A stretch of 53,233 nucleotides of DNA from Nitrospinota bacterium (GCA_016200345.1 JACQEX010000058.1:1-53233); one strand, 5' to 3'; positions 7,440 through 35,854 are shown, counted from the stretch's first letter. Notes: generated from the sequence alone by a model not told the origin. Program-made: numbers and translations.

Positions 7440-8475
7440 AATATCCGCGAGTGACGCGCTGGCGCTTTTCCAAGAGAGCGACCTTTTGGGGCTTGGGCAA
7501 AGGGCGGACGAGGCTCGAAAACTGCTCCACGGGGACGGCGTCGTAACCTACATCATAGACAGAAACATAAACTACACGAACATCTGCGTGTCCGGCTGTC
7601 TTTTTTGCGCGTTTTATCGCACGGCAAAGTCGGGGGAGGGGTACGTTCTTTCCTCGGAGGAGATTAACGAAAAAATCGCCGAGACAAAAGATGTGGGCGG
7701 GGTGCAAATTCTCATGCAGGGGGGACTGCACCCAACGTGGAGGATAGGGGAATACGAAAAAATGTTGCGCGAGATAAAGGCCGAGCACGAAATACATATT
7801 CACGCGCTCTCGCCGCCGGAAATATGCCACATTGCAGAGTTGAGCGGACTTTCGATAAAGGAGACGATTTCTCGCCTAATCGAGGCCGGTTTGGACTCCA
7901 TACCGGGCGGGGGCGCGGAGATTTTGGTGGACCGCGTGCGCTCGAGGCTAAGCCCCAACAAATGCAACGCTGACAAGTGGCTGGAGGTTATGCGCTCCGC
8001 GCACGGGCTGGGGCTTAAGACAACCGCAACGATGATGTTCGACCACATAGAGACGCTCGAGGAGCGCATTCGCCATATGGAGAGACTGCGCGAGTTGCAG
8101 GACGATACGGGCGGCTTTACGGCCTTCATCCCGTGGCCGTTTCAACACGGGGCCACGGCGCTGGGCAAAAGCGGGGTCGAGAAAAAAACCGGGTCGCTGG
8201 ACTATTTGCGGACGCTTGCCATAAGCAGGATAATGCTGGACAATATACCGAACATACAGGCGTCGTGGGTCACGCAAGGCTCCAAGGTTTCGCAGATGGC
8301 GCTGTTTTTCGGCGCGAACGACATGGGTAGCACGATGCTTGAGGAAAACGTGGTGAGGGCGGCCGGGGTTTCCTTCCGTCTTTCGGAGAAGGAGATTCGC
8401 GGGATTATAACCGACGCCGGTTTTGTTCCGCGCAGGCGGACGCAGGCTTACGCGCTCCTTCCGGAACCGGCATAA
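7432..8475 (+). CDS. mqnC: Cyclic dehypoxanthine futalosine synthase (radical SAM, CofH/MqnC family)
   Basis: DRNINYTNICVSGCLFCAFYR (CxxxCxxC), QGGLHP, SIPGGGAEIL, QASWVTQG, GANDMGSTMLEENVV. Confidence 0.9.
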   Translation: MARISASDALALFQESDLLGLGQRADEARKLLHGDGVVTYIIDRNINYTNICVSGCLFCAFYRTAKSGEGYVLSSEEINEKIAETKDVGGVQILMQGGLHPTWRIGEYEKMLREIKAEHEIHIHALSPPEICHIAELSGLSIKETISRLIEAGLDSIPGGGAEILVDRVRSRLSPNKCNADKWLEVMRSAHGLGLKTTATMMFDHIETLEERIRHMERLRELQDDTGGFTAFIPWPFQHGATALGKSGVEKKTGSLDYLRTLAISRIMLDNIPNIQASWVTQGSKVSQMALFFGANDMGSTMLEENVVRAAGVSFRLSEKEIRGIITDAGFVPRRRTQAYALLPEPA

Positions 8476-9316: not shown

Positions 9317-9858
9317 ATTTCATTAAATCCGACATTCCCGAAGTCGTGCTCGTCGAGCCGAAAGTTTTTCCGGACGGACGCGGATTTTTCATGGAAACTT
9401 GGAACGAGCGAGTTTTCGCCGAAAACGGCGTCGCGGCGAAATTCGTGCAGGACAACCAGAGCAAATCCGTTCGTCACACGCTGAGGGGCCTTCACTACCA
9501 GGTGAGGCAGACGCAGGGAAAGCTTGTAAGGGCGCTCTCCGGCGAGGTGTTCGACGTGGCGGTTGATTTGCGGAAAAACTCCCGGCATTTCGGGAGGTGG
9601 GTCGGCGCCGTCCTTTCCGGCGAGAATAAAAAAATGGTCTGGGTGCCGCCGGGATTCGCCCACGGATTTTTGGTGTTGAGCGAAACGGCGGAGGTGGCCT
9701 ATAAATGCACCGATTTTTACGCGCCGGCCAACGAGAGGTCGCTGTTGTGGAACGACCCGCGCCTGGCGATAAAATGGCCTTTGCCGTCCGGGGCCGAGCC
9801 GATTCTTTCGCCAAAGGACGCCGCCGGAGCGGAGTTCTCAAAGGCGGAATATTTTTAG
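9313..9858 (+). CDS. rfbC: dTDP-4-dehydrorhamnose 3,5-epimerase
   Basis: D.RGFF.E, FVQDNQS.S, LRGLHYQ, QGKLVR, PPGFAHGF; AAGGAG RBS before ATG 9313. Confidence 0.95.
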   Translation: MNFIKSDIPEVVLVEPKVFPDGRGFFMETWNERVFAENGVAAKFVQDNQSKSVRHTLRGLHYQVRQTQGKLVRALSGEVFDVAVDLRKNSRHFGRWVGAVLSGENKKMVWVPPGFAHGFLVLSETAEVAYKCTDFYAPANERSLLWNDPRLAIKWPLPSGAEPILSPKDAAGAEFSKAEYF

Positions 9859-20364: not shown

Positions 20365-21519
20365 TTAACTGGCGCTTTCCCTCAAATATTTTAGAAAGGC
20401 TGGAAGGTTGCAGGATATGCGGTGCTCGTCGCCGGATGACCGACTGGTTTGAGATATAAGGAAGCTTCTCGAGGCTTTTATCATTTCCGCCGTTTTATCC
20501 AACCGCGCCATGTCCGCTGGCGACGGCGAAGACGTCAGTTTTATTTCGACAGCCCACAGTTCTTTTCCGAAGTCCAAGACCAGGTCTAATTCGTGTTGGT
20601 CGCTTGATCTGAAGTGGTAGGCGTCGACCTTCCGTCCAATCGCCGAAAGCTCCCCCAACGCCTGCTCAATGACGAAGCCCTCCCAGCTCGCGCCGACCCA
20701 TGGTTGCGCCATCAAGGTGCGCTCGTTTGGTACGTTAAGCAAGGCATGAAGCAGGCCGCTGTCACGCCAGTAGACCTTAGGCGTTTTAACAAGGCGCTTA
20801 CGGATATTGGTTTGAAACGACGGCAACCGTCTTATCAGGAAAGCGCCCACCAAGTAATCAAGGTACGTGTTGACGGTATGGTACGAGAGACCAAGGCTTT
20901 GACCAACCTGTGAGGCGTTCCAAGCCTGTCCATGAAGTGCCGCCAGCATGCGAAGCAGACGATCCGTAGTTTGCGGTTTTGATGGCAGGCCCCATGCCGG
21001 CAGGTCGCGTTGGGTTAAAAGCGAAACGTAGTCTTGTTGCCATCGCGGATACTGCTTTGGAACCAGCACTCCGCCGTCCGGGTATCCCCCGCACATCCAG
21101 CGTCTCGCGCCCGAATCTTTCGTTTTCAACTCTGTTATGAGAAACGGGGTCAACTCCACCAACGATAGGCGTCCGGCAAGAGATTCCGAAACCTGAACCA
21201 TAAGGGAAGGGGACACGGATCCAAGTAGAAGAAATCGTCCGTTTCGTTTGCGCTTACTATCTATGGCTCCGCGTAGGCGAGAGAATATGTCGGGCCAAGT
21301 TTGGGCCTCGTCCAATATCACCATGTCCTTCCCGTCCGCCAGACGGTTCCACTCAAGATCCAAGCGAAGGCGTTCGGAATTTTGCTCTAGGTCAAAATAG
21401 AGTCCCCCCATCGACCGAGCAAGGGTGGTCTTTCCGCATTGGCGGGGTCCAACTAATGCCACTGCCGGGCTGGAGTCCAGCCGCTCAACGATCTGCAGGC
21501 GAACCAACCTATTAATCAT
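20365..21519 (-). CDS. AAA+ ATPase (AAA_14 plus DUF4143)
   Basis: GPRQCGKTT, ILDEAQ, LLGS, ESLAGR, GGYP, KRLVKTPKVY..DSGL, ELDLV...VEIK. Confidence 0.92.
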   Translation of the reverse strand: MINRLVRLQIVERLDSSPAVALVGPRQCGKTTLARSMGGLYFDLEQNSERLRLDLEWNRLADGKDMVILDEAQTWPDIFSRLRGAIDSKRKRNGRFLLLGSVSPSLMVQVSESLAGRLSLVELTPFLITELKTKDSGARRWMCGGYPDGGVLVPKQYPRWQQDYVSLLTQRDLPAWGLPSKPQTTDRLLRMLAALHGQAWNASQVGQSLGLSYHTVNTYLDYLVGAFLIRRLPSFQTNIRKRLVKTPKVYWRDSGLLHALLNVPNERTLMAQPWVGASWEGFVIEQALGELSAIGRKVDAYHFRSSDQHELDLVLDFGKELWAVEIKLTSSPSPADMARLDKTAEMIKASRSFLISQTSRSSGDEHRISCNLPAFLKYLRESAS

Positions 21520-23359: not shown

Positions 23360-25168
23360 ATGAGGGCGCCGGAAACTCTTTCCGATTTTATTTCCGCGCT
23401 CGAATCAGCGGGCGAATTGGTGCGAATCCGCGAGAAGGTCAGCCCATTGCTCGAAATAACCGAGATAACCGACAGGGTCTGCAAAACCCCCGGCGGCGGC
23501 AAGGCGCTCCTTTTTGAAAACGTGGAGGACTCCTCCATGCCGGTGCTTATAAACGCGTTCGGTAGCGACAACAGAATGAAAATAGCTTTCGGCTCCTCCC
23601 CGCGCGAAATCGCGGCAAAAATTGAAAAACTCGTAAAGACGGCGCCGCCCGAGACGCTGGGGGATAAACTAAAACTTCTGGGGACTCTTCTAGACATTAG
23701 AAAAACACAGCCGAAAAAAATATCCGGCTCCGCCCCGTGCCAGGAGGTCGTGATGACCGGCGCGGACGTGGACCTCAACAAAATCCCGGTTTTAAAATGC
23801 TGGCCCAACGACGCGGGGAGGTTCGTAACCTTTCCGTTGGTTTTTACAAAATCGCTGGACGGCAGGCGGAACGTCGGGATGTACAGGCTCCAGATTTTCG
23901 ACAAGAACACGACCGGGATGCACTGGCACATACACAAGGACGGCGCGCATAATTTTCACGACTACAAAAAGGCGGGTAAACGAATGCCGGTCGCCGTCGC
24001 AATTGGCACCGACCCGGCCACGACCTATTCCGCCACGGCGCCCCTGCCGAGGGGGGTGGACGAGCTGATGCTCTCCGGCTTTATTCGCAACAAGCCGGTG
24101 CGAATCGTAAAATGCAAGACGATTGACATGTGGGTTCCGGCGGACGCAGAGATAATTTTGGAGGGATACGTTGACCCCGCCGAGCCGTTTCGGATTGAGG
24201 GCCCGTTTGGCGACCACACCGGCTATTACTCGCTCGCCGACTACTACCCGCTGTTTCACGTTACGGCCGTCACCACGCGGAAAAATCCCGTTTATTTCAC
24301 GACGATTGTCGGTAAGCCGCCGATGGAGGACTGCTACATGGGTCGCGCCACCGCCGATATTTTTCTTCCGCTGTTGCAGATGGTGAACCCGGAGATAACC
24401 GGCATGGATTTACCGTGGGAGGGGGTTTTTCACAACTGCGTTGTCGTCTCGATGGAAAAACAATATCCCTACGCCGCGCACAGGCTGATGAACGCCTTGT
24501 GGGGCGCGGGGCAGATGAGCTTTGCAAAGATGATATTGGCCGTTGACTCCGGCGTGGACGTGCGCGACCACGGCGCGGTCTTTAGGAATTTGCTGAATAA
24601 TTTCGACGTCGCCGAGGACCTTTTTTATTCCAAGGGGGTGCTTGACGTTTTGGACCATTCGTCGCCGGACGCGATGCGCGGCTCCAAGCTTGGTCTTGAC
24701 GCGACGTCTCGCGGGTCTGCGGAGAAGGCGAGAAACAGGCCGCAGTTAATTCCCGTTGACGAGCAGGTGATTCGGCGGGGGTGCGAGGCGGCAGATCTAA
24801 AGTCATTTTCCGTGCCCGAAAAGAACACGGCAAATCGCGTTATAATATTCTCCGTGGACAAGCAAAACGGCGGTAAGTCAGCGGTGGAAAAGTTAATGGA
24901 TGCTGACGTGGGGCAAATGGCGAACATCGCCGTAATCGTGGACGCCTCGATTAAGGCAGGGGAGCATTCCACCGTCGCTTGGAAGCTTTTTAACAACACC
25001 GACCCGTTGCGCGACATCGTAAAAACAAAATGGGGCCTTCTGCTGGACGCGACAAAAAAAACGCCGGCCGACGGCCACGACAGGGAATGGCCGGACGACA
25101 TAGAGATGGACAAGACCACGAGGGAGAGGGTTGACGCACTCTGGCCCAAGCTGGGGGTTGCGGGATGA
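23360..25168 (+). CDS. UbiD-family (prFMN) decarboxylase, menaquinone/futalosine-pathway type
   Basis: GGKALLFENV, NVGMYRLQ, EGPFGDHTGYY, GKPP.ED, LWGAGQMSFAK; duplicated C-terminal domain; start at ATG 23360. Confidence 0.9.
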   Translation: MRAPETLSDFISALESAGELVRIREKVSPLLEITEITDRVCKTPGGGKALLFENVEDSSMPVLINAFGSDNRMKIAFGSSPREIAAKIEKLVKTAPPETLGDKLKLLGTLLDIRKTQPKKISGSAPCQEVVMTGADVDLNKIPVLKCWPNDAGRFVTFPLVFTKSLDGRRNVGMYRLQIFDKNTTGMHWHIHKDGAHNFHDYKKAGKRMPVAVAIGTDPATTYSATAPLPRGVDELMLSGFIRNKPVRIVKCKTIDMWVPADAEIILEGYVDPAEPFRIEGPFGDHTGYYSLADYYPLFHVTAVTTRKNPVYFTTIVGKPPMEDCYMGRATADIFLPLLQMVNPEITGMDLPWEGVFHNCVVVSMEKQYPYAAHRLMNALWGAGQMSFAKMILAVDSGVDVRDHGAVFRNLLNNFDVAEDLFYSKGVLDVLDHSSPDAMRGSKLGLDATSRGSAEKARNRPQLIPVDEQVIRRGCEAADLKSFSVPEKNTANRVIIFSVDKQNGGKSAVEKLMDADVGQMANIAVIVDASIKAGEHSTVAWKLFNNTDPLRDIVKTKWGLLLDATKKTPADGHDREWPDDIEMDKTTRERVDALWPKLGVAG

Positions 25169-25995
25169 TGACGCACAGAAACGGGGACGCCGGGGAGCTT
25201 CCGCCGCTGTTAAAAAAAATATTGGAGAACAAGGCGGACGAGGTTCGCGCGCGCAAGCGGCTTGTTTCGCAAGACGACATAAAAAAACGGTCGGCGGACG
25301 CGCCACCGGTCAGGCCGTTCGCGGGGAGCGTCCTTGCCTGCGAGTCGCGCCATAAAATCATCGCCGAGATAAAGCGTTTTTCGCCCGGCTCCTCAAAATT
25401 AAGGCGCGATTTCGACCCGCGCCGCATCGCCGAGGGCTACGAGGCATCCGGCGCCGCCGCGCTTTCGGTTCTTGCCGACACGGTCTTTTTCGGCGGCTCT
25501 CTCTCGATAATGTCCACGGCGCGGGATGCGGTCTCCCTGCCCGTTCTTTGCAAGGAATTTATAATTGACCCGTTTCAAATTTACGAGGCGCGCGCGTACG
25601 GGGCGGACGCGGTGCTTCTGATGGTCGTAAATTTTCCCGACAAGGAGCGGTTCAAGGAGATGGCGGACGTGGCGAAGGACGCCGGTCTGGAGGCGTTGTT
25701 GGAGATAAGCGACGAGGCCGATTTGGAATATCTGCCGAGGTCGCGCCCGAGCGTCATCATCAACAACAGAAATTTCAGGGATCCGGACTTAAAGGTGGAC
25801 GTTGCCACGACCACGAGGCTCGCGCCGCTCATCACCAACCCCCGCATATTGATAAGCGCGAGCGGGATACAAAGCGCCTACGAAATGGAGGAACTGCAAA
25901 AGTCGGGAGTCGACGCCTTTTTAATCGGAGGGCGGCTTATGACCGAGATGGACCCCGCCGCAGAGCTGGCCCGTCTGCTCGGGAAGCACAAATAA
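25165..25995 (+). CDS. trpC: Indole-3-glycerol phosphate synthase
   Basis: IIAEIKR.SP, ALSVL.D..FFGGS, PVL.KEFIID..QI.EAR..GADAVLL, INNRN, SASGI. Confidence 0.9.
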   Translation: MMTHRNGDAGELPPLLKKILENKADEVRARKRLVSQDDIKKRSADAPPVRPFAGSVLACESRHKIIAEIKRFSPGSSKLRRDFDPRRIAEGYEASGAAALSVLADTVFFGGSLSIMSTARDAVSLPVLCKEFIIDPFQIYEARAYGADAVLLMVVNFPDKERFKEMADVAKDAGLEALLEISDEADLEYLPRSRPSVIINNRNFRDPDLKVDVATTTRLAPLITNPRILISASGIQSAYEMEELQKSGVDAFLIGGRLMTEMDPAAELARLLGKHK

Positions 25996-26005
25996 AACAG
26001 CACAA

Positions 26006-26059
26006 TTAACCGTTTCTTAACGTCAACCCCACAATCCTTTAATATCGCCCGGATACAAT
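26006..26059 (+). promoter_or_regulatory. Pho-box-like direct repeats plus -10 element
   Basis: TTAAC 26006, TTAAC 26017, (degenerate 26028), TTAAT 26039 in 11-bp phase; TACAAT at 26054, 10 nt after the last repeat. Confidence 0.6.
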
Positions 26060-26089
26060 AGCCGCAATGCTAATCAATTTGGCAAGCAT

Positions 26090-27189
26090 ATGAGTAGTGA
26101 TAGAAAAACCTCCGAGACCGTCGTTTCATTTAACGACGCAAGGCCGTTGGAAACCCTTTTTACGCGGCTTGGTTGCGGATTCGGGCAAAACGTGTCGGTG
26201 GAGAATCTTCCATTTGCGAACGACGACGTAAGCATCGGCACCGAGAGCGAGTTGCAGACCTCCGTTCAGGGAAACGCCAACGACGTTGATTTGCCGCAGA
26301 CGATAAGGCAGTCCACCTTTTTTTCCAATCTTTACAAGCGAGCCTCAAGCGGAGAGACTAACAAAAAACCGATAAACAAAATAGAAAGGTATCTGGCCCG
26401 CGCCCCAGAAAACACGTGGGAGAACAGCTGGGTGCGGTTTCCCCGCCGGTATCTTTCGCCGTATGCCCAAAAAGTTCTCGGGCGCGATTTGTTGCTGGAC
26501 AAGGACGACCCGGCCTCCGGGTCGAGAAAAGACTCCGGGAAATTCGTTTTTCTTCAGGAGGGGGAGGAGTGGCTCAGGCTCCCGGTTAGCTATCTGTTAA
26601 AGTTGTCGCTCGCGGACGCGGTGGGGGACGGGCAGTTCTCCGTTTCAATCCGGAACAGGGGTGTGGCAATGCTCGACAACTTCCTAAATGACAACACCAG
26701 CCCGGAGACGCACTCTTTCTACTTGGCGCCTTCGGGTCAAAAAGTGAACGCCCCGCAGACGGCGGCCGACGAGTCGGCGCTGAGATTTTTTGTCTCCCAG
26801 CTCGCCGTGTTCTACGCCAACGAAAAGCTTGGGCTTGGCGCCAACAGGCAACGCGCGGTGGTTTACAACTCGCCGCATCCGCCCGTTCGGCAGAGGGAAT
26901 TGAACGACCTCGTGCCGGACTCCTTTGCCACGAGGTTCTTAGCAGAAGCTATTTAAACGCCGTGATAAAACTCCGCGACGCGGGGATAATAACAAGGAAT
27001 CTCGTGGTTCTGCCAAACACCTCCAACATCGCGCTTGCCAACAACGGAACGCACGTGAGCATTGGTAGCGCGATGATGACGAAGGCCATGGCAAGTCCGG
27101 GATCCGGACTCGGGCCGGGACACGAAAAATACGCGGGAGACCTGGCGAGGCGCTTGGGCGTTTTCAAAAGGCCAACCGACGGCCTTTAA
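26090..27189 (+). pseudogene. Broken conserved hypothetical protein, possibly carboxylate-amine ligase (GCS/GS-like) superfamily
   Basis: ORF 26090-26956 continues in another frame from about 26923 (LCHEVLSRSYLNAVIKLRDAGIITRNLVVLPNTSN..NNGTHVSIG) and ends abruptly after EKYAGDLA; GTESELQ and GTHV motifs. Confidence 0.65.
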
Positions 27190-28562
27190 CCGCTCTGCAC
27201 CCCGAGTTTAAGGAAGGGGGGAGAAATTTTATTCATTACCTCGCCCTGCGCCAGCTTGATTTAAAAGAGTTGCAACTTCGTCTGGCCCGCCACGGATTGT
27301 CTTCGCTTGGAAGATGCGAGTCCCACGTGTTGGACAACATCCGGCAGGTGGCGGATAGAATAAGCGATTCGCTGGGCATTCGCGGCGTAAGGCAAAAAAA
27401 GGCAAAGCGCGTTTCTTCCAAATTAAAGCCGCTTACATTGCATTCCGCCGAGGATATTTTAAGCCGCCACACCCGCGATTTATTGGGCAAAAAGCCTTTT
27501 GATAGAAACGTTTATATAATGGTCACGACGCCGCTTAAGGTGGATTTCAGCCCGACATGGGTCAGAAAGGCGCTTCGAGCCGGCGCGAATTTGTTTCGCG
27601 TCAACTGCTCCCACGACGCGGTGGCGGATTGGAGCGAGATTATCAAGACCATCCGGCAGATGTCCTCGGAGTTGGAAATTCCGTGCAGGATATTTATGGA
27701 TCTTGCCGGGCCAAAAATTCGAACGGCGTCCCCGGAGCCCAAAAAACTTTCCACCGGCGACTTCATTAGCCTCGTGGCGGAAATACACAACAAGAAAAAA
27801 GACGTTTTATGCAGTCTGCCGGAGGCGCTGAAGTTCGTGATGGTGGGGGAGAGGGTTGTGTTTGACGACGGAAAAATCAGTGCCGTGGTCGTGGGAAAGG
27901 ACGTCAACAAGGTTGATTTGGAAATTATAAGGACTCCGGGGCCCAAGGTAAAATTAAAGCGCGAAAAGGGGATTAATTTTCCGGACAGCCTGATAAGCGT
28001 ATCCGAGGTGACGGAACAGGATTTAAGAGACCTCGAATTTGCCGCCGTTCACGCGGACATCATCGGCCTGTCGTTTGTTCAAAGCCCGGAGGCGATTCGA
28101 AAAATTCGTCGCGAGATATCGGCGCGCACGACCCGTACCCTAGGCATAGTGCTAAAAATTGAGACGCAGGCGGGGTTTAGGGAGTTGCCGAAACTGCTCT
28201 TCGAGGCGATGCGCGAGTATCCGGCTGGCGTAATGATAGCAAGGGGAGACCTTGGCGTGGAGGTGGGTTTTGAGCGAATGGGGGAGGTTCAGGACGAGAT
28301 ACTCTGGCTTTGCGAATCGGCCCACGTGCCGGTGATATGGGCGACGCAGGTGCTGGAAAACCAGGCCAAGACCGGGATTCCGTCGCGGGCTGAGGTGACG
28401 GACGCGGCGTCGTCGGTGCGGGCCGAGTGCGTGATGTTAAACAAGGGGCCGTTTATAGACGAGACAATTCGCTCGCTGGACGACATATTGAAAAGGATGG
28501 AGGCCCATTCCCACAAGAAGCGGAGCGTCTACCGCAAGCTGAAAGTCGCAAAGTTGCTTTAG
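27147..28562 (+). CDS. pyk: Atypical pyruvate kinase (N-terminal helical extension, no C-terminal regulatory domain); 5' end apparently lost
   Basis: RVNCSH, DLAGPKIRT, KGINFP, KIET, MIARGDLGVE, WATQVLE, PSRAEVTD, CVMLNKG. Family-like N-terminus LHPEF...RNFIHYLALRQLDL lies upstream of the first TTG (27270) with no ATG/GTG/TTG back to TAG 27066. Confidence 0.8.
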   Translation, partial: EALGRFQKANRRPLTALHPEFKEGGRNFIHYLALRQLDLKELQLRLARHGLSSLGRCESHVLDNIRQVADRISDSLGIRGVRQKKAKRVSSKLKPLTLHSAEDILSRHTRDLLGKKPFDRNVYIMVTTPLKVDFSPTWVRKALRAGANLFRVNCSHDAVADWSEIIKTIRQMSSELEIPCRIFMDLAGPKIRTASPEPKKLSTGDFISLVAEIHNKKKDVLCSLPEALKFVMVGERVVFDDGKISAVVVGKDVNKVDLEIIRTPGPKVKLKREKGINFPDSLISVSEVTEQDLRDLEFAAVHADIIGLSFVQSPEAIRKIRREISARTTRTLGIVLKIETQAGFRELPKLLFEAMREYPAGVMIARGDLGVEVGFERMGEVQDEILWLCESAHVPVIWATQVLENQAKTGIPSRAEVTDAASSVRAECVMLNKGPFIDETIRSLDDILKRMEAHSHKKRSVYRKLKVAKLL

Positions 28563-28569
28563 TCGGAAA

Positions 28570-29031
28570 TCAGCCTAGAAAAAACTGCAATTCGGTCAGG
28601 TAATGTTTCGGGTTTCCTTTGAAAACCATCCCCGGCCCTTTGATAAATATCTCGCGCGTCGGCAAAAGCACCTTAAGGTTGTTGTGCTCCACGTGTTTCA
28701 TGACAATTTTATACGCCTCGTCCAGTTCCTCGTACGGCCCTTCGTGAATCAGACTGAGGCATTTCCCGCCCGATAATGTGCGGATATTCGCCCCTTCGTG
28801 TTTGAAGCGCGCGGAAACCGGGATGCACGTCTCCACGTCGGCGTCGTCTTGTTTTAGCTCCAAGTCATAATGTAGATTCATCGCCGGGCCAGAAACGTGT
28901 TTTGTCACGATTCGTCCAAGATTTTTACAAACTTCCCCGGTTTTTTTGTACGGGCCTTTCCATCTGACGGAAACAACGGTCAACGGCGAGACAACTTTTT
29001 CCACGATTTCACAAACGGAATGGTTCGGCAT
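28570..29031 (-). CDS. GyrI-like small-molecule-binding protein
   Basis: HEGPYEEL..AY, PTREIFIKGPG....NP..YLTELQF; AGGAGG RBS before ATG 29031. Confidence 0.85.
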   Translation of the reverse strand: MPNHSVCEIVEKVVSPLTVVSVRWKGPYKKTGEVCKNLGRIVTKHVSGPAMNLHYDLELKQDDADVETCIPVSARFKHEGANIRTLSGGKCLSLIHEGPYEELDEAYKIVMKHVEHNNLKVLLPTREIFIKGPGMVFKGNPKHYLTELQFFLG

Positions 29032-29119
29032 ATCAAAGTCCCTCCTTGACAAAAATTAAGCCAGCATTACTAAAATGGCACACACTCTGCGCCCACTCTA
29101 CCAATCCCCATTAACGGAG

Positions 29120-29509
29120 TCAATCGTCCTTTGGGTCCAAAAGAATCGTTTTTAGACCCGACACGGTTTTTTCGACTTTTTTCAAATCACCGCGCCGTCC
29201 TTTTTCCGGTTTGATGGTGAGTCGCTCAAGAATTGACGTTGCCTTTGTCGTCTCGGATTTTTTAAAGACCCTTCTCCGATCGGCCTTTTGTTGGGCCAAT
29301 TCCACGGCTTCCATTATTTCCAGGATGTCGCGCTCCATGTTTGACGATATCGCGTGGCATAGCTCTTTGCTTGTGGAACGCAGGTGGTGAAGGTATGCCA
29401 GCAGATTTTTGGTCTTTGCCAGATAGGTCGGGTTTTCCTTAACGTCCGCTTTTTGTTTTGCGGCGGCCGTCTTTTCCGGCTTCTTAGCCGAAGTTTTTGC
29501 CTCGGTCAT
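29120..29509 (-). CDS. Small basic helical hypothetical protein
   Basis: ATGA overlap with the upstream tmk-like gene; Lys/Arg-rich KPEKGRRGDLKKVE motif. Confidence 0.75.
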   Translation of the reverse strand: MTEAKTSAKKPEKTAAAKQKADVKENPTYLAKTKNLLAYLHHLRSTSKELCHAISSNMERDILEIMEAVELAQQKADRRRVFKKSETTKATSILERLTIKPEKGRRGDLKKVEKTVSGLKTILLDPKDD

Positions 29510-30258
29510 GCGGTCTTGCCTCCCGTTTTAACTTTTTTAGCCGATGTTTGTTTTACGCTCGGTGTTTGCGCGGGACGCAAAATTCCCTCGATTTTGGCCT
29601 GCAACTCGTTTGTTATGGTGCGCGTCAGCCTGTTTCCGTTGATGATTTGAAACCCGTAGGTGTCTTTCATCGCGGTGAAGGTCTGCCTCAATTTAGTCTG
29701 GTATTGTATGAAACACTCGTATCGGTCGCCGGAGCGGCGGATGTCCATGCCGGACTCCCAGTAATCCAGCACTAGGTTTTTTCTAAGGTTTCTTTCGGCC
29801 AGAACCTTCGGCGGCACCTGAAGGTAAAACACGGCGTCCGGCACCAGCGCAATTCCGTAAACCCCCTTTATCCACTGCTCGTTTTCGCCCCGGACAATGT
29901 CCCGAGCCATCAGCGTGTAGATGTATCTGTCGGCAAGCACGACGAAGCCTGAGCGAAGCCCGGGAATAATCCTGTTTTCCAGCTGGTCGGCAAAGTCGGT
30001 GGCGTAAAAAAGGCTGTGCGTTATCGGGCTCATTACGTTTCCCTGTTTGGCGCTCTCCAACTCCTCGCCTACGAGCGTGGAGCGTTTTAGGCCGACCGTT
30101 ACGGTGGGGTAGCCGATTCTTTCGAGCCAGTTGCTTATAAGGGAAATTTGGGTGGAGCGCCCCGATCCGTCGGAACCCTCGATGACGATGAGCTTTCCCG
30201 TCAGCTGTCTTGTGTCCATCGCCGGCAGTCCGCGCCCGTAGAAATTTCGTTCGGTCAT
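29506..30258 (-). CDS. Thymidylate-kinase-like protein B (P-loop GSDGSGRST)
   Basis: GKLIVIEGSDGSGRSTQ, LADRY; NMP-kinase fold. Confidence 0.85.
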   Translation of the reverse strand: MTERNFYGRGLPAMDTRQLTGKLIVIEGSDGSGRSTQISLISNWLERIGYPTVTVGLKRSTLVGEELESAKQGNVMSPITHSLFYATDFADQLENRIIPGLRSGFVVLADRYIYTLMARDIVRGENEQWIKGVYGIALVPDAVFYLQVPPKVLAERNLRKNLVLDYWESGMDIRRSGDRYECFIQYQTKLRQTFTAMKDTYGFQIINGNRLTRTITNELQAKIEGILRPAQTPSVKQTSAKKVKTGGKTA

Positions 30259-30947
30259 TTATTGTCCCTCCATTTGTATTTTGGCAGGTCAATTTTATCG
30301 CGGATGATTTTTCTAAGTTTTTCCTGCTGGACGTTGGGCGACTCGGTGCCGTCCACAAGGGTGAAGTCAAACTCCTTGGCCATGCTTAAGTATTCGTTGT
30401 AAATTCCGGTTTGGAAAATCTTGAAGCTTTCCTCGGGGTCGTTTGAAAGGCCCAGGTCCATCCCGGCCTCGTGGTATTTTAGCTCAGGCCTGCCGCTTAA
30501 AATACGGTCTATCGCGGTCTCGATGGGAAGTTTGAAGAAAAATGTGATGTCGGGCTGGCGGACGAAGCCGTAGAGCGTCCTCAGCCACTCCTTGTCGCAC
30601 CCGCGCATGGCGTCGCGCGCGAATGCCGTAAATTTATAACGGTCGGCAAGCACTATGTATCCGGCGCGGAGAAGGGGCAGTATCTGCCGCTCGTACCTGT
30701 CGGCAAAATCGGTGCAGTGAATAAGCGAGAACGTGGTTGGCGTCAAAAGTTTTCTTTTTTTCCCTTTTCTTGTGGCGTCCTTCACGAGGTCGGACGAGTT
30801 CCACTCGGTAAAGGCGACCTTGTACCCCTCCAGTTCGAGCCATCGTTTTATAAGGTGGATTTGGGTGGATTTGCCGGAGCCGTCCATTCCCTCCACGGCG
30901 ATGAGCTTGCCGGCGATTTCATGATGAAAGTGCGTTTGTAGGGTCAT
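30255..30947 (-). CDS. Thymidylate-kinase-like protein A (P-loop GMDGSGKST)
   Basis: GKLIAVEGMDGSGKSTQ, LADRY, PDITFF. Confidence 0.88.
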   Translation of the reverse strand: MTLQTHFHHEIAGKLIAVEGMDGSGKSTQIHLIKRWLELEGYKVAFTEWNSSDLVKDATRKGKKRKLLTPTTFSLIHCTDFADRYERQILPLLRAGYIVLADRYKFTAFARDAMRGCDKEWLRTLYGFVRQPDITFFFKLPIETAIDRILSGRPELKYHEAGMDLGLSNDPEESFKIFQTGIYNEYLSMAKEFDFTLVDGTESPNVQQEKLRKIIRDKIDLPKYKWRDNK

Positions 30948-30957
30948 TTATATTTTC

Positions 30958-32466
30958 CTATTCCAAAACTAATTTTAATTGAAAAACTTCCTCGAAGAGG
31001 TCGCATTTCCTTGCCAGCTTCCATTTCTCTATCAAAAGGTCCCCGGATCCCTCAAGGGCCAGGGACGCCTTGCTTTTTGTCAGATCCAAACGGAATTTCT
31101 TCACAATTCCCTCGTGCTCCGTGTCCATGGCGTCGGCAAGCCTCAAAAGCGCGGAGAGTTTCGTGGTCGCGGCTTTTCCCGCGGTGGAAAGAGCCGCAAA
31201 GCCCTCGTGTCTTTCCGTGGGCGAGGCCATCCGGTGGTACCGCGCGATGTTTGCGACTACGGCCTGTTGTTCCTTGTTAAGGCCGATAATCGGCGTGGAG
31301 GAAAGCAGGTAGTAGGTGTGCTTGTGGTGTTTTGAAACCCCGATGAAGGAGCCCACGTCGTGCAGAAGGGCCGCGGCCTCCAGTAGAACGCGGTGTTCGC
31401 CGTTAAGTCCGTGCAGTTCTTTGGTCGCGTCGAACAACATCCCGGAAAGCCGGGCCACGGTTTCGGCGTGCGACTCGTCGTATTGATATTTTTTTCCGAT
31501 TAATCTTGCCGAGGAGAGGGCCTGCTCGCGCTGGATTCCCTTTGTCCCGGCGTATATGCCGCCCCACAGGTCCAGCAAAACTCCATCGCGCAGTCCGACG
31601 TACGGAACGTGAACATTCTCCACCTCCGCCAACTTTGCGATTCTTTGAAGGACGATTGCGGCGGGGAGGATTACGTCCGCCCTGTCGGGTCGCAGGCCAA
31701 TTTCTCGGATTCGCTCCTCGAAGGAGAGGTTTTGAAGTTTTTTTACCAGAGAGTTTAGGAGGGGGAGGGGGATGACCTCGTTCGAGTCGCCGCCCATCTC
31801 GTCCTTGCACAGTCCGCCCATCGTCTCTATGTTTCCGCCGGTGCCGACGCAAAGGTCGATTTTTTTGGGGCCGATAGCCTTTTTAAAATCCTTTTTTAGG
31901 CCGCCAACGTATTCCTGCACCATTTGCGCGAATTCCTTTTCGTCGGTTTTTTTCCCCTTCAACTCGCAAATCAGCCTTACCGTTCCGATGTCGAGGCTGA
32001 CTGACGACGCTATTTTTTCGTTATCCGTCAGGGTAATCTCAACGCTCCCCCCGCCAATCTCGACCAACAGCGCGGTTTTCTGGCGCGTGTCCATCTTGTT
32101 TTGGACCGCCAGGTTTATTAGCCTGGCCTCCTCCTCGCCGCCGATTATCTCGACGTCAATCCCCAGGTTTTTTTTGGCCCGCGCCACGAATTGCGCGCCG
32201 TTTTTTGCGTCGCGAAGGGCGCTGGTGCCTACGGTTTTGGAGAGGACGACGCCGTAATTGTTCATAAGGCCTTTAAACCTTTCCAGCGCCTTTAACGCCC
32301 CGTCCATCATTTTTTCGGAAATCTGGTCGTTTGAGAACACGTCCTGCCCCAAACGAACCGCCTCGCGCGCGCGTTCGACGACCTCCATGCGCCGATTTTG
32401 GTCGGCGTTTGCGATGATGAGCCTAATGGCGTTCGAGCCTATGTCAATTCCAGCAATGGCCGGCAT
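30958..32466 (-). CDS. ppx: Ppx/GppA exopolyphosphatase with C-terminal HD domain
   Basis: IDIGSNAIRL, VRLG, GTSALRDA.N, GEEEARL, EIGGGS.E, RADVILPA, GLRDG, LLHDVG....HHKH. Confidence 0.93.
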   Translation of the reverse strand: MPAIAGIDIGSNAIRLIIANADQNRRMEVVERAREAVRLGQDVFSNDQISEKMMDGALKALERFKGLMNNYGVVLSKTVGTSALRDAKNGAQFVARAKKNLGIDVEIIGGEEEARLINLAVQNKMDTRQKTALLVEIGGGSVEITLTDNEKIASSVSLDIGTVRLICELKGKKTDEKEFAQMVQEYVGGLKKDFKKAIGPKKIDLCVGTGGNIETMGGLCKDEMGGDSNEVIPLPLLNSLVKKLQNLSFEERIREIGLRPDRADVILPAAIVLQRIAKLAEVENVHVPYVGLRDGVLLDLWGGIYAGTKGIQREQALSSARLIGKKYQYDESHAETVARLSGMLFDATKELHGLNGEHRVLLEAAALLHDVGSFIGVSKHHKHTYYLLSSTPIIGLNKEQQAVVANIARYHRMASPTERHEGFAALSTAGKAATTKLSALLRLADAMDTEHEGIVKKFRLDLTKSKASLALEGSGDLLIEKWKLARKCDLFEEVFQLKLVLE

Positions 32467-32483
32467 TTTTCACTTCCTTTCAA

Positions 32484-32547
32484 ATTATAACGAGAATACA
32501 CAAAAATCGGTTAAGGAAGCGTTAAGGGCGCGTTAGCGAGCCGTTAA
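32484..32547 (-). promoter_or_regulatory. Four Pho-box-like direct repeats plus TATAAT upstream of ppx
   Basis: Plus-strand GTTAA/GTTAG at 32510, 32521, 32532, 32543 (exact 11-bp period; TTAAC/CTAAC on the minus strand); minus-strand TATAAT at 32484-32489. Confidence 0.65.
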
Positions 32548-34400
32548 ACAAGGAAGCGCCCCACGCGCGCGATGAAATCATAACCATCCCCCTTTTTGCT
32601 TATAAAATCGTTTCCTCCGAGTCTGAAAACTTTTTCGCCGGTTTCCAAATCCGGTTTGGCGGTTATGGCCAACAAAGGAATCGCGTCAAATTTGTGGTTT
32701 CCCCTCATTTCCTTCAACAGCTGAAAGCCGTCCATGACGGGCATGAAGACGTCGGCTATTACCAGATGAAAGGCGAAGGTGTTTAGCAGTTCAAGCGCCT
32801 CGGCCCCGTTTTCGGCCTCCTTTACCTCCACGTTCAGCGGTTGCAAATATTCCTTGTAGATGGAACGGGAAAGCGGATCGTCGTCCACCAGCAACACCAA
32901 CGGTTTTACAAGGGGAAGCGATGCGTGAAAAACGCTCCCTTTCCCGACGGCGGATTCCACGGTTATGGCGCCGCCGTGCGCCTTCATGATGTCCAGCGAA
33001 AGCGGGAGGCCGTAGCCCGTGCCCTTCTCGCCGGCGGTGCCGGTTGTGGCGGTTTTATGCTCCAACGAAAAAATGGTCTCGATGGATTCCGGCGGGACGC
33101 CGACACCGTCGTCGGACACGGACAGGGTGGCCGGGTTGTCATGCTGGGTGAAGACGGTTATTGTTCCGCCGGGCTTGCTAAACTTGATTGCGTTTGTGAG
33201 GAGGTTTTGAACCACCTCGTAGTACAGCACCTGGTCCGCATAAATTCTTGTTTTTGGCCTCACCTCGTTTTTAAGGGCAAGCCCTTTTTTCGAGGCTATC
33301 GGGCCGAGGTTGGCGAACGCCTGTTCCACCACGGAATAAGCGTCCATAAAAACCTTTTTCAGGCTAATTTTTCCGGAGCGAAGTTTGTTGATGTTCAGGA
33401 CGTCGTCAATCAAGCGCGCCATGTTTTCGGTGTTTTGAATAATCAGCTCGACGAATCCGCGAACCTCCTCCACGTTCCCCCTGCCCAGGTTGTCCTTTAT
33501 TATCTTAAGGAACCCGGAGACCACCGAAAGAGGCGCCCGAAGGTCGTGCGCGACGAGCGAGACGAATTGATCCTTAAGTTTAATGGCCTGCTCGGCCAGT
33601 TCCTTGGCCTCCGTCAAACTTTGCTCTATTATTTTGCGGTCGGTTATGTCCTGCGTTGTTCCGGCAAGTTTTATGGCGACGTCCATGTCATCGTGCATGA
33701 CGCTTGCCTGGACGTGCACCCATCGCAACTGTCCGTCGGGGAGGATTATCCTATATTCGCAGGTGTACGGGATTTGTTTTTCCAAAGCATTTTTGATGAT
33801 TTTTACCAAGCCTTCCTTGTCCTGCGGGTGGACTTGTTGTATGAACCTTTCGAAGGTGATTTTCGCCTCGTTGGGAGAGAGGCCAAAAATGCGGTAGTGC
33901 TCGTCTGACCAGGTTGTTTCGTTTGTCCTGAGGTCGCGTTCCCAGTTTCCCAAATGCGAGAGCGAGGCGGCGTATTTAAGCTGTTTTTCGCTCTCCCTCA
34001 GCCGTTGCTCGATTTTTGTTTTGTAGAGGGTGATTTCCAACGCTATTTGAAGCTCTTTTTCCTCGAACGGTTTGAATATGTACCCGAACGGCTCGGTAAT
34101 GGAGGCCCGTTTTAGCATCTCGTCGTCGAAAAAGGCGGTTAGAAATATCACCGGGGTGGGGAGCAGTTTTTTTATTTTATTCGCGGTTTCTATTCCGTCG
34201 TACTTCCCCTTTAATATTATGTCCATAAGGATGACGTCCGGCCTCAACTGCGTCACCTTCATCATCGCCTCCTCGCCGGTGGAGGCGGTTCCGGCGACGG
34301 CGTAGCCGAGTTTTTCCACCGTGCGCTTTATGTCCATGGAGACGATAGTCTCGTCCTCCACGATTAAAATCCTTGGCCGCATCTTAAGTTCCTTCGTCAT
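32544..34400 (-). CDS. Hybrid histidine kinase (REC-PAS-HisKA-HATPase-REC)
   Basis: ILIVEDE..LMDI; PAS (WSDE.YRIFG, VHP.D); AHDLRAPL; NLLTNAIKFS; GTGYGL; C-terminal REC. Confidence 0.93.
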   Translation of the reverse strand: MTKELKMRPRILIVEDETIVSMDIKRTVEKLGYAVAGTASTGEEAMMKVTQLRPDVILMDIILKGKYDGIETANKIKKLLPTPVIFLTAFFDDEMLKRASITEPFGYIFKPFEEKELQIALEITLYKTKIEQRLRESEKQLKYAASLSHLGNWERDLRTNETTWSDEHYRIFGLSPNEAKITFERFIQQVHPQDKEGLVKIIKNALEKQIPYTCEYRIILPDGQLRWVHVQASVMHDDMDVAIKLAGTTQDITDRKIIEQSLTEAKELAEQAIKLKDQFVSLVAHDLRAPLSVVSGFLKIIKDNLGRGNVEEVRGFVELIIQNTENMARLIDDVLNINKLRSGKISLKKVFMDAYSVVEQAFANLGPIASKKGLALKNEVRPKTRIYADQVLYYEVVQNLLTNAIKFSKPGGTITVFTQHDNPATLSVSDDGVGVPPESIETIFSLEHKTATTGTAGEKGTGYGLPLSLDIMKAHGGAITVESAVGKGSVFHASLPLVKPLVLLVDDDPLSRSIYKEYLQPLNVEVKEAENGAEALELLNTFAFHLVIADVFMPVMDGFQLLKEMRGNHKFDAIPLLAITAKPDLETGEKVFRLGGNDFISKKGDGYDFIARVGRFLV

Positions 34401-35854
34401 GCATTTTTGTTGAACCTTATGCGAATCGTCGTTTTTTCGCCGCGTTCAAAATCAATTGTTCCCTGTAGCTGGTCTTTCACCAACTGCGTCACCAAATCCA
34501 GCCCGAAACTCCCGACGTCCCCGACGTCCCTTCTCATGCCCACGCCGTCGTCCTCCACGAGGATTTCAACCGCTCCGTCCGGCGATGAAGAGGCGGTAAT
34601 CCACGCGTTCCCCTTTTTTCCGCCCGGGAACGCGTGCTTAATGATGTTCGTGACAAGCTCGTTCATCACAATGCCGCAGGGAATCGCATAGTCGGCGCCA
34701 AGCGAAACCCCTTCGGCGCTGACGGTGAACTTAATTTTATCTTTGCCGACCCCCTCGTACCCTTTTGCCAAAGTCGAGACCATCTCGCTGAAATACTCTC
34801 CCATCATGATATCTGAAACGCCGCCGGGTTTGTAGAGTTTTTCGTGCAACAACGAGATGGAGCGCACCAAAGCCTCGCTTTCCTTAAACTGCTCCAAATC
34901 CTTGGGGTCTTTTATGTTCCTCGACTTAAGGCGCAGGATGCTTGCGACAATTTGCAGGTTGTTTTTCACCCTGTGGTGAATTTCGCGGAGCAACAGCTCT
35001 TTTTCCTCGTACTGTCCTCGTAAAATTTCCTCGTCCCTCATTCTTTCGGATATCTCCGCGCCAAGCCGTTCGTTCGCCGCCGTAAGGTCGGCGACCCGTT
35101 CCCTGACGGTGCGCTCCAGGTTTTCCTTGGCGGATTTAAGCAGGTTTTCGGCGACCTCGCGGTCCGCCATCTCGTGAAGAAGCTCGTCGTATGAGTTTTG
35201 CACGTTTTTGGCCATCGGCCTGAATATGAACAACGCCTCCATGATCAGCAGTGAAATGGCGAAAAGGGTGACGACGGTCTGGCTGTTTTTTAGTTTGGTT
35301 ACGCGCTCGTCGGCCCTTTTTTGGAACTCGAACACGGTCATGTTCATCAGGTCAAGAAATTGCGGCGAGGCCTCGACAATTTCTTTTAATGGAGGGGATG
35401 AGAGGGGAATGGCGCCGGAATCTGAGGTTTTAAGGAGAATCAGTTTTTCCAGCCCGTCCTTGACGTTTTGGAAATACGGGTTCATCTCGGCAAAATAGCC
35501 CTCGGCTTTTTTGTCGGTGTTTTTCGGGAGGCCCAGCGCCTCGTTTCCGTTTTGTAGTCCCGCCTGAACCGTTGTCCATTCGTCCAGCGAGGCGCGGATT
35601 GTCCCTCGATAAATCTCAATCTCCCCCTTGTCCGTGGTCTGCGCGAAAAGCAGGGCGGTTTTTGTGAGCTTTTGCGAGAGCATTCGTTGACGTCCCGAGA
35701 GGTTGATTAAATTCGCGTCCGCCTCGTTCTGGTGGATGATGAGCCGGGTTGTGACGTGGCCGAGAATGACCAGCGTGGCGATGAGCGAAAGGGCGGCGAC
35801 GTAGCGGATGGTTATGTATTTTAACTTATGTATTCTGGAAAAATGTTTATCCAT
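34397..35854 (-). CDS. Membrane histidine kinase with NarX/PilJ-type sensor and HisKA_2 core
   Basis: Two TMs; INLSGRQRMLSQK (P-box-like); EIHHRVKNNLQ; ELVTNIIKHAF; DDGVG. Confidence 0.9.
   Translation of the reverse strand: MDKHFSRIHKLKYITIRYVAALSLIATLVILGHVTTRLIIHQNEADANLINLSGRQRMLSQKLTKTALLFAQTTDKGEIEIYRGTIRASLDEWTTVQAGLQNGNEALGLPKNTDKKAEGYFAEMNPYFQNVKDGLEKLILLKTSDSGAIPLSSPPLKEIVEASPQFLDLMNMTVFEFQKRADERVTKLKNSQTVVTLFAISLLIMEALFIFRPMAKNVQNSYDELLHEMADREVAENLLKSAKENLERTVRERVADLTAANERLGAEISERMRDEEILRGQYEEKELLLREIHHRVKNNLQIVASILRLKSRNIKDPKDLEQFKESEALVRSISLLHEKLYKPGGVSDIMMGEYFSEMVSTLAKGYEGVGKDKIKFTVSAEGVSLGADYAIPCGIVMNELVTNIIKHAFPGGKKGNAWITASSSPDGAVEILVEDDGVGMRRDVGDVGSFGLDLVTQLVKDQLQGTIDFERGEKTTIRIRFNKNA

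Follow-up and report, generated by a model that had tools for sequence, protein, structure and literature searches.

The stretch of DNA analysed here, 53,233 nucleotides (nt) from a Nitrospinota bacterium (GCA_016200345.1 JACQEX010000058.1:1-53233; hereafter the window, meaning the whole stretch), carries between positions 26,006 and 32,547 two convergent gene units, each headed by direct repeats of the pentamer TTAAC at a period of 11 base pairs (bp). The right unit, on the minus strand, comprises an exopolyphosphatase gene (ppx), two genes of the thymidylate kinase (TMK) superfamily that resemble the subunits of the polyphosphate kinase PPK3, and a small gene; the left unit, on the plus strand, holds what is left of a gene that we call X and of a pyruvate kinase gene. 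An earlier note, made from the sequence alone, had proposed that both units form one co-regulated phosphate/polyphosphate module whose members, apart from Ppx, have no assigned role.

The right unit and the box arrays of the window

The box arrays, the candidate promoter elements and the genes of the right unit are as follows.

32547-32510, minus strand: right array of four boxes, TTAAC (32547-32543), CTAAC (32536-32532), TTAAC (32525-32521) and TTAAC (32514-32510)
32489-32484, minus strand: TATAAT, candidate -10 element, 20 nt downstream of the last right box
30958..32466, minus strand: Ppx/GppA exopolyphosphatase, 502 amino acids, with an HD-type domain III (Pfam); first gene of the operon
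30255..30947, minus strand: cPPK3-like catalytic subunit, 230 amino acids, matching S. tokodaii STK_15430 (2plr/5h70)
29506..30258, minus strand: rPPK3-like subunit, 250 amino acids, a TMK-superfamily paralog whose Walker-A Lys is replaced by Arg
29120..29509, minus strand: small basic protein, 129 amino acids, of an unnamed family; its start overlaps the rPPK3-like stop by 4 nt
26006-26010 and 26017-26021, plus strand: left array, two TTAAC boxes 11 bp apart, 10 nt past the trpC stop codon
26039-26043, plus strand: TTAAT, possible fourth-position box
26054-26059, plus strand: TACAAT, candidate -10 element, 10 nt after TTAAT
26040-26045, plus strand: TAATAT, alternative candidate -10 element of the left promoter

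The repeats are real and placed as previously described. On the left, the layout TTAAC/TTAAC/-/TTAAT with TACAAT 10 nt downstream was found at exactly the coordinates reported for it; the third phased position reads CCACA, which is not a box, and the first open reading frame (ORF) of the unit begins with an ATG at 26090. The right promoter had been described as four repeats and a TATAAT, of which the phasing and the TATAAT held up, whereas only three of the boxes are exact TTAAC and the fourth carries a single mismatch (CTAAC); the coordinates given earlier for this array are the plus-strand starts of GTTAA/GTTAG. A repeat search returned the right array as a 16-nt unit that is present three times, 11 nt apart. 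Its first box overlaps the stop codon (32544-32546) of an upstream hybrid histidine kinase gene, and the ATG of ppx lies at 32466. When both strands of the 53-kb window were compared with 100 shuffles, exact TTAACN6TTAAC was found twice (shuffle mean 0.15; 2 of 100 shuffles reach 2), both times between genes and oriented toward the downstream gene, and nowhere else in the window. A consensus promoter scan called neither the left nor the right promoter, as expected because neither has a -35 element.

A scan of species-representative genomes yielded 557 pattern matches, 522 of which encode a relative of the cPPK3-like protein; the best 80 of these 522 confirmed stretches (66-79% identical to the cPPK3-like protein of the window) serve below as the related loci, labelled L001, L002 and so on, and their gene content was assessed by tblastn with representatives checked against Pfam and NCBIfam. 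The nearest two, L001 and L002, are Nitrospinota metagenome-assembled genomes (MAGs), with cPPK3-like identities of 79% and 74%, respectively.

The outline of the gene list in the earlier note (a ligase-like hypothetical, an atypical pyruvate kinase, a GyrI-like gene, a small basic protein, two TMK-like kinases and Ppx/GppA) was borne out by Pfam and NCBIfam, with corrections that concern the left unit (see below). Ppx matches PF02541 (173.5 bits) and PF21447, the domain III family (95.6 bits), as well as TIGR03706 at 232 bits, below the 307-bit cut-off, and is 67% identical to the Ppx of L001 over its full length. The ppx gene ends 10 nt before the cPPK3-like gene, and both the cPPK3-like/rPPK3-like and the rPPK3-like/small gene junctions are 4-nt stop/start overlaps; given these overlaps and the 10-nt gap, we regard the 4 genes as one operon. 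The two TMK-like paralogs are 38% identical to each other. The first matches STK_15430 with E=1.1e-61 (211.5 bits over 208 residues), against at most 52.8 bits (~1e-13) for other TMK chains, and the second matches the same protein with E=2.4e-38 (135.1 bits), any other TMK chain reaching no more than 48.5 bits. The cPPK3-like family is highly conserved, with the best 120 of 8000 scored proteins being 68-84% identical and the identity across phyla amounting to 66-84%. In the catalytic paralog, G-S-G-K-S-T is retained, as are the two D-R-Y triplets and a stretch of basic residues, G-K-K-R; in the rPPK3-like paralog, all 49 aligned sequences have Arg instead of the Walker-A Lys, the first D-R-Y reads D-Q-L (Gln for Arg) and the basic G-K-K-R stretch is missing.

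The accessible part of PMC12995831, to which our statements about that paper refer, provides the role that the two kinases had been thought to lack. The ppx gene of Sulfolobus acidocaldarius has beside it two genes that carry a thymidylate kinase annotation but encode a heteromeric polyphosphate kinase, PPK3, composed of a catalytic (cPPK3) and a regulatory (rPPK3) subunit and encoded in the operon SixA-PPX-cPPK3-rPPK3-CHAD; STK_15430 (PDB 5h70) is the S. tokodaii homolog of cPPK3 (PMC12995831; the description of PPK3 in Sulfolobus dates from 2024/2026, the preprint being 10.1101/2024.08.28.610084). The window shares with this operon ppx followed by two adjacent TMK-superfamily paralogs, the first of which is the cPPK3 match, and in the loci related to the window SixA, CHAD and Pst genes neighbour the pair. 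It differs in being bacterial, in having neither SixA nor CHAD, in the third small conserved gene after the rPPK3-like gene, and in the rPPK3-like protein, in which the Walker-A Lys is exchanged for Arg and one D-R-Y triplet is retained.

The co-occurrence analysis that had been suggested as a check came out in favour of the right unit, with the pair standing beside Ppx, SixA, CHAD, Pst, PhoU and PhoBR genes in many of the 80 loci. The rPPK3-like gene adjoins the cPPK3-like gene in 79 of them, and in the remaining locus the contig ends 19 nt after the latter. Ppx is encoded directly upstream of the pair in 29 loci and at most 4 kb downstream in 25; the other neighbours are a SixA-like protein (33 loci), CHAD (26), an HHH_5 protein (19), PhoB-like (14), PstB (14), PhoR-like (13), PhoU (12), PstC/A (12), PstS (8), a PHP phosphoesterase (5) and PPK2 (4). 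In L064 the genes are laid out in the order phoB-phoR-[boxes]-pstSCAB-phoU-ppx-cPPK3-rPPK3-small-CHAD-SixA.

The small basic protein has relatives in 64 of the 80 loci, 55 of them encoded directly after the rPPK3-like gene, as judged with a local hidden Markov model built from the 129-residue protein. In a 45-member alignment, R, K, G, R and D are invariant within a K-P-x-K-G-R-x-K-D motif near the C-terminus. The protein has no sequence match in Pfam or the PDB, and no Pfam family is common to more than 5 of the 45 members. A short CHAD domain was considered and rejected (hhalign probability 0.3%), and an Atlas lead to bAvd (0.81) was dropped as below a meaningful level.

Several features of the related operons were seen along the way. 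A protein of about 174 residues with an HHH_5 domain is encoded between SixA and the cPPK3-like gene, at about 9450-10000, in L009, L014, L015, L023, L024, L026, L027, L032 and others; its 19 loci are mostly from Geobacteraceae, and the operon description in the accessible part of PMC12995831 makes no mention of it. A frameshift divides the rPPK3-like genes of L013 (10729-11398) and L072 (10826-11502), and the pstS of L033 (3038-4124) is broken into two ORFs; each may reflect assembly error or decay. L072 (CAVTBR010000002.1) is titled Candidatus Bathyarchaeota archaeon and encodes a cPPK3-like protein 67% identical to that of the window, with Ppx, a CHAD-SixA fusion, pst and phoU as neighbours, which may be due to either horizontal transfer or a binning error.

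Phased boxes in related loci

Spacings between exact TTAAC boxes were counted over the 80 related loci and the window (1.29 Mb, both strands). Twelve pairs were found at a spacing of 11 bp, compared with 0-4 (mean 1.1, 32 in all) at the 29 other spacings between 6 and 35, spacings 22 and 33 having 3 and 4 pairs, respectively. All 12 pairs at 11 bp lie upstream of phosphate-related units or of gene X: before ppx(-PPK3) operons in the window, L001, L002, L052 and L059; before pstS in L064 and L070, where PstS scores above the TIGR00975 cut-off; at the head of a porin-pstS-pstCAB-phoU-ppx cluster in L033; before a PhoB-like gene in L065 (TIGR02154, 273 bits, below the cut-off of 296); before PHP phosphoesterase genes divergent from phoB-phoR in L052 and L065; and before gene X in the window. 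The proposal that the boxes are of the Pho type is thus strengthened, since in related loci TTAAC-N6-TTAAC stands before pstS operons, before the gene for a PhoB-like regulator and before further phosphate genes.

Comparison of orthologous promoters, likewise put forward as a check, pointed the same way: the right array is conserved in L001 and L002, and phased boxes recur before those X genes that have an upstream region to themselves (L073, L078 and L016). The ppx promoter of L001 reads TTAAC, CCAAC, TTAAC, TTAAC and aligns box for box with the right array of the window, with the flanks diverging, and that of L002 has 4 phased boxes, TTAAC, TTAAC, TCAAC, TTAAC. Three-box arrays (at most 1 mismatch per box and 2 in total) number 11 at a spacing of 11, against 0-6 at the other spacings within 7-16, and include the X promoters of Geobacter argillaceus (L078) and a relative (L073), both reading CTAAC, TTCAC, GTAAC, TTAAC and lying 73 nt ahead of the start; when no more than 1 mismatch was allowed over all three boxes, the right array of the window was the sole match. 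In L022, a three-box array stands at a PstS-like gene and the ppx promoter has TTAAC-N6-GTAAC; the X promoter of L016 reads ATAAC-N6-TTAAC, 21 nt, TACAAT; and phased boxes are also present at the phoB-like promoters of L065, L052 and L067.

Regions upstream of ppx were in addition analysed irrespective of any given motif (n=22, leaving out L050, L053 and L069 as near-duplicates and L064, L070, L074, L033 and L041, in which phoU runs into ppx). Exact 5-mer self-matches peak at a distance of 11 nt, with 33 matches compared with a mean of 3.65 (standard deviation 2.4, maximum 14) in 200 shuffles and 0 in the coding control. The peak is made up of matches from 15 of the 22 regions, and in 8 of these the word contains TAAC.

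The spacing between the last box and the -10 element falls into two classes, which differ by one repeat unit. It is 20-21 nt in the right promoter of the window, before three phoB-like genes from candidate division FCPU426 and at the X promoter of L016, and 10-12 nt in the left promoter of the window (counting TTAAT), L001 and L002; the ppx promoter of L002 (last box, 10 nt, TACACT) matches the left layout of the window.

Both the core and the phasing have parallels among known Pho boxes, as described in the accessible parts of the papers cited. The cyanobacterial SphR Pho box consists of at least three 8-bp repeats of CTTAACCT separated by 3-bp linkers (PMC1906773), and the arrays described here share with it the TTAAC core, the 11-bp period, the tandem direct orientation and the position of 3-4 units before phosphate genes; the phylum is another one, the boxes of the window read G/C rather than CT after the core, and the likeness is one of sequence. 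PhoB likewise recognises 11-nt direct-repeat units, the E. coli core being CTGTCAT (PMC4415409), and in E. coli 10 bp separate the Pho box from the -10 element downstream of it (PMC1906773). As in E. coli PhoB promoters, the 11-bp direct repeats may replace or abut the -35 element upstream of a good candidate -10, and phoB-like genes in related loci carry boxes themselves, as in autoregulation; the core is different, and the last right box of the window lies 20 nt rather than about 10 nt from the -10. Polyphosphate genes are usual members of the Pho regulon (PMC4415409, PMC6713934).

We therefore consider it probable that the right unit is a PPK3 polyphosphate operon behind a Pho-box-type promoter, and that the left array is a promoter of the same kind standing before the wreck of X and the kinase gene. 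In such an arrangement, a phosphorylated regulator of the PhoB/OmpR family, encoded outside the window, would bind the four right boxes, which probably extend into the -35 region, head to tail and would bring RNA polymerase to TATAAT, so that the translationally coupled operon of ppx, cPPK3, rPPK3 and the small gene would be switched on under phosphate limitation. Ppx would release phosphate from polyphosphate, and the PPK3 pair, with its catalytic and regulatory TMK-like subunits, would move phosphate between polyphosphate and ADP/ATP. That a phosphate regulator binds the boxes, that expression depends on phosphate, and that the pair has kinase activity and forms a heteromer are predictions drawn from sequence comparison.

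A number of observations weigh against this interpretation. None of pst, phoU, phoB and phoR is encoded within the 53-kb window. With one mismatch allowed, the paired motif occurs 6 times in the window against 2.35 expected, a weak excess reached by 3 of 100 shuffles. The 12 exact pairs come from 9 loci and the window, and only some 7-8 cases are independent because several pairs are orthologous promoters. Seven of the 22 ppx upstream regions have no 11-nt self-match at all and only 8 have a TAAC-containing one, and the distance between boxes and -10 is not uniform (20-21 versus 10-12 nt). On the side of the enzyme, polyphosphate kinase (PPK) activity has been demonstrated for the Sulfolobus protein only (PMC12995831), and the second D-R-Y of the rPPK3-like proteins is invariant, as opposed to the rPPK3s of PMC12995831, in which the DRX arginine is replaced, although the triplet meant there may be either of the two. 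Finally, 11-bp direct repeats are common across the OmpR family (PMC4415409).

This last point also favours the view that the boxes are bound by a different OmpR-family regulator responding to another signal, for instance the partner of the histidine kinases encoded upstream. Indeed, directly upstream of the right unit (32544-35854, minus strand) lie genes for a hybrid histidine kinase (REC-PAS-HisKA-HATPase-REC, 618 amino acids) and a PilJ/HisKA_2 kinase (485 amino acids), both on the same strand as ppx, with the first right box overlapping the stop codon of the former and with no phoB within the window. Neither kinase reaches the PhoR model cut-off, which is uninformative on the partner regulator. 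However, the array is kept in L001 and L002 even though both kinases are absent there (no match at E<1e-8) and what lies upstream of ppx in L001 is a CHAD gene in divergent orientation, and in L002 an unrelated ORF; furthermore, the same box pair precedes pstS and phoB-like genes in other loci. We consider a regulator of this kind unlikely.

Other repeats and gene arrangements came to light in the same loci. In candidate division FCPU426, a gene for a PHP-family metallophosphoesterase (L052:6662-7414; L065:5721-6425; L067:5202-5903) is divergent from phoB-phoR, with TTAAC-type pairs at both divergent promoters. Another 11-bp direct repeat, GTTACA-N5-GT(A/G)AA-like, is found 100-240 nt upstream of the first gene of the SixA/HHH_5-PPK3 operon in 13 of the 19 Geobacter-type loci (L009, L015, L023, L026-L028, L032, L056, L061, L062, L073, L078 and L079); this pattern was chosen post hoc and has 37 matches over all loci on both strands. 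In L001, a CHAD-domain gene (7540-8334, minus strand), which has no counterpart in the window, is divergent from ppx, and the boxed intergenic region may for this reason serve both genes.

The left unit and the GyrI-like gene

On the plus strand, the left unit consists of a 288-residue ORF, a 75-residue ORF in another frame and a 430-residue ORF with the pyruvate kinase barrel. Together with the GyrI-like gene that follows it, the unit comprises the following features.

26090..26956, plus strand: gene X fragment 1, 288 amino acids, corresponding to about residues 14-297 of its relatives and ending at a frameshift
26893..27159, plus strand: gene X fragment 2, in another frame, about residues 292-395 of the relatives
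27147..28562, plus strand: pyruvate kinase of the ~500-residue branch of the PRK14725-like family, without its first ~33 codons and start codon
28570..29052, minus strand: GyrI-like small-molecule-binding protein (Pfam, 38.2 bits, cut-off 26)

Family X has 318 relatives at E<=0.001 among 1.84 billion representatives, and its full-length members are about 715-825 residues long. Seven full-length relatives match the window by tblastn at 26105-26926 and 26893-27159 only, with nothing beyond about residue 395, and 12 shorter database entries give the same pattern, so that what remains of X is the front 45% of a protein of about 800 residues. Between the two fragments about 24 codons (~70 nt) are lost and the frame is changed; the lost stretch contains six columns that are invariant in an alignment of 33 full-length members. 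The description of the first ORF (26090-26956) as ligase-like was not upheld, since X has no recognisable family or solved relative: the 288-residue ORF has no match in Pfam or NCBIfam (0 in each), no Pfam family is common to more than 2 of the 33 relatives, the profile of these relatives finds no PDB sequence better than E=0.17, and the ESM Atlas returns unnamed clusters only.

The kinase homology begins at 27144-27162, in a third frame, and the first ATG/GTG/TTG of this frame is a TTG at 27270. Each of ten relatives of 490-518 residues gives one unbroken alignment, which starts at its residue 23-40 and runs to its end; that of the nearest (P0377, 504 residues) covers residues 34-503 without gaps and at 69% identity. 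The best NCBIfam match is PRK14725/NF011314, with 507.9 bits in two stretches, below the 642-bit cut-off; compared with these long pyruvate kinases, the branch represented in the window, of about 500 residues, is without ~130 residues of the 614-position model, and the copy in the window has also lost its ~33 leading codons. An internal deletion of ~130 residues in the kinase was rejected, because the nearest relatives of about 500 residues align without gaps and the length is a trait of the branch. The simplest account of the junction is that a deletion of about 1.4 kb joined X at codon ~385 to codon ~34 of the downstream kinase gene, out of frame. The left unit, taken earlier for a working one, would accordingly be a deletion relic of two genes, and both are likely to have lost their function.

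Could the lesions instead be artefacts of assembly or binning, with X and the kinase gene intact and the left promoter driving a working operon? The window does resemble a metagenome-assembled contig, and the kinase body, gapless and 69% identical to its nearest relative, implies that any decay is recent. Nevertheless, three separate features would have to be explained away, namely the loss of ~70 nt, the change of frame and the junction that removes ~420 codons of X and ~33 of the kinase, and none of the three lies at a homopolymer. Moreover, the exact shortened products of 288 and 410 residues are each recorded on 4 contigs, which argues against a one-off assembly error without excluding it, the independence of these assemblies being uncertain. 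An artefact is, in our assessment, quite unlikely.

Among the 80 PPK3 loci, X is present in 4 and a PRK14725-like kinase in 3, in addition to the window. The three kinases are full-length PRK14725-type enzymes (617-640 residues) encoded a few kb from PPK3 operons (L028:11878-13791, L070:822-2744, L072:5257-7110); upstream of the one in L070 stands TTCAC-N6-TTTAC. The neighbours of X in Geobacteraceae (L061:1009-8425; L073:3336-7833; L028:14115-14876) encode a phosphatidylserine-decarboxylase-like protein, an Lgt-like protein, a GH3-family adenylating enzyme, a DUF2062 protein and a weakly matching DUF6134 protein, and in one database entry (P0059) a fragment of X is fused to PF02666. It is pure conjecture that these neighbours, together with the Pho-box-like arrays, speak of membrane-lipid remodelling under phosphate stress.

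The GyrI-like gene, which had been counted as a member of the module, has no relative in any of the 80 related loci, and the 67-nt gap that separates it from the operon holds promoter-like and terminator-like sites; we take it for a probable unit of its own, outside the conserved module. The proposed phosphate/polyphosphate module is thus supported for the right unit, whose neighbours elsewhere include pst, phoU, phoBR, CHAD, SixA and PPK2 genes, but not as a working unit on the left, nor for the GyrI-like gene. As for the remainder of the window, no transfer RNA genes were found in it, and Rfam gave nothing at E<=0.1 within 25000-33500 and nothing at the gathering score in the whole window. 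The PADLOC models gave only weak matches, the best of them (4.6e-07) to an unnamed candidate model, and the idea of a defence system was therefore dismissed. A lone AAA_14/DUF4143 ATPase gene (20365-21519, minus strand) lies between motility genes and an iPGM gene, with long gaps on either side.

The kinase pair and what the operon means

The assignment of the TMK-like pair to PPK3 has to be weighed against its family names. The pair might be nucleotide kinases, acting on deoxythymidine monophosphate (dTMP) or another nucleoside monophosphate and merely encoded beside ppx/gppA: Pfam and NCBIfam name both thymidylate kinase (E ~1e-18 to 1e-23), one of the two scores 83.0 bits against TIGR00041, whose cut-off is 83.25, and the P-loop and D-R-Y motifs are present. 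This is very unlikely given the 211 and 135 bits to the S. tokodaii cPPK3 homolog, as opposed to no more than 53 bits to canonical TMKs, the PPK activity of the Sulfolobus orthologs, which are without dTMP kinase activity (PMC12995831), and a neighbourhood of polyphosphate and phosphate genes. It is more improbable still that the repeats are functionless chance matches, TTAAC being short and the one-mismatch excess in the window small, in view of the sharp enrichment at exactly 11 bp, the conservation in orthologous promoters and the placement before phosphate genes.

Taking the right unit as a PPK3 operon behind a Pho-box-type promoter, the observation holds, yet known biology accounts for most of it, since the promoter and the operon are both of known kinds. 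What seems to be unpublished, as far as a limited literature search goes, is the link between the Pho box and PPK3, the small third gene, and the association of X and of a PRK14725-like kinase with PPK3 loci; the main text of PMC12995831 contains none of the terms 'hypothetical', 'promoter', 'PhoB', 'Pho regulon' and 'Nitrospin'. The genome table in the accessible part of that paper gives PPK3 = 0 for four Nitrospinaceae genomes and PPK3 = 1 for many Nitrospirota, whereas the two Nitrospinota MAGs L001 and L002 carry the operon.

A bolder proposal is that PPK3 in bacteria is a three-protein machine, composed of the catalytic subunit, a Lys-to-Arg pseudo-kinase and the small protein, and belongs to a wider Pho-controlled set together with X and a dedicated pyruvate kinase that uses phosphoenolpyruvate (PEP). 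We regard this as rather unlikely. If it were true, the pyruvate kinase would keep the ATP/ADP ratio high for polyphosphate synthesis, much as the Sulfolobus enzyme made polyphosphate in vitro only with ATP recycling by PEP and pyruvate kinase (PMC12995831), and the set would constitute a phosphate-regulated route from PEP to polyphosphate, undescribed so far.

On the reading that we favour, an enzyme characterised only in an archaeon would be tied to the classical phosphate-starvation regulon in bacteria, and a poorly studied phylum would gain a concrete operator sequence. PPK3-type operons occur in many bacterial phyla (522 confirmed stretches), usually with the unnamed third gene. For polyphosphate biology, the locus overturns nothing; it points toward the regulation of PPK3 and toward a possible extra subunit.

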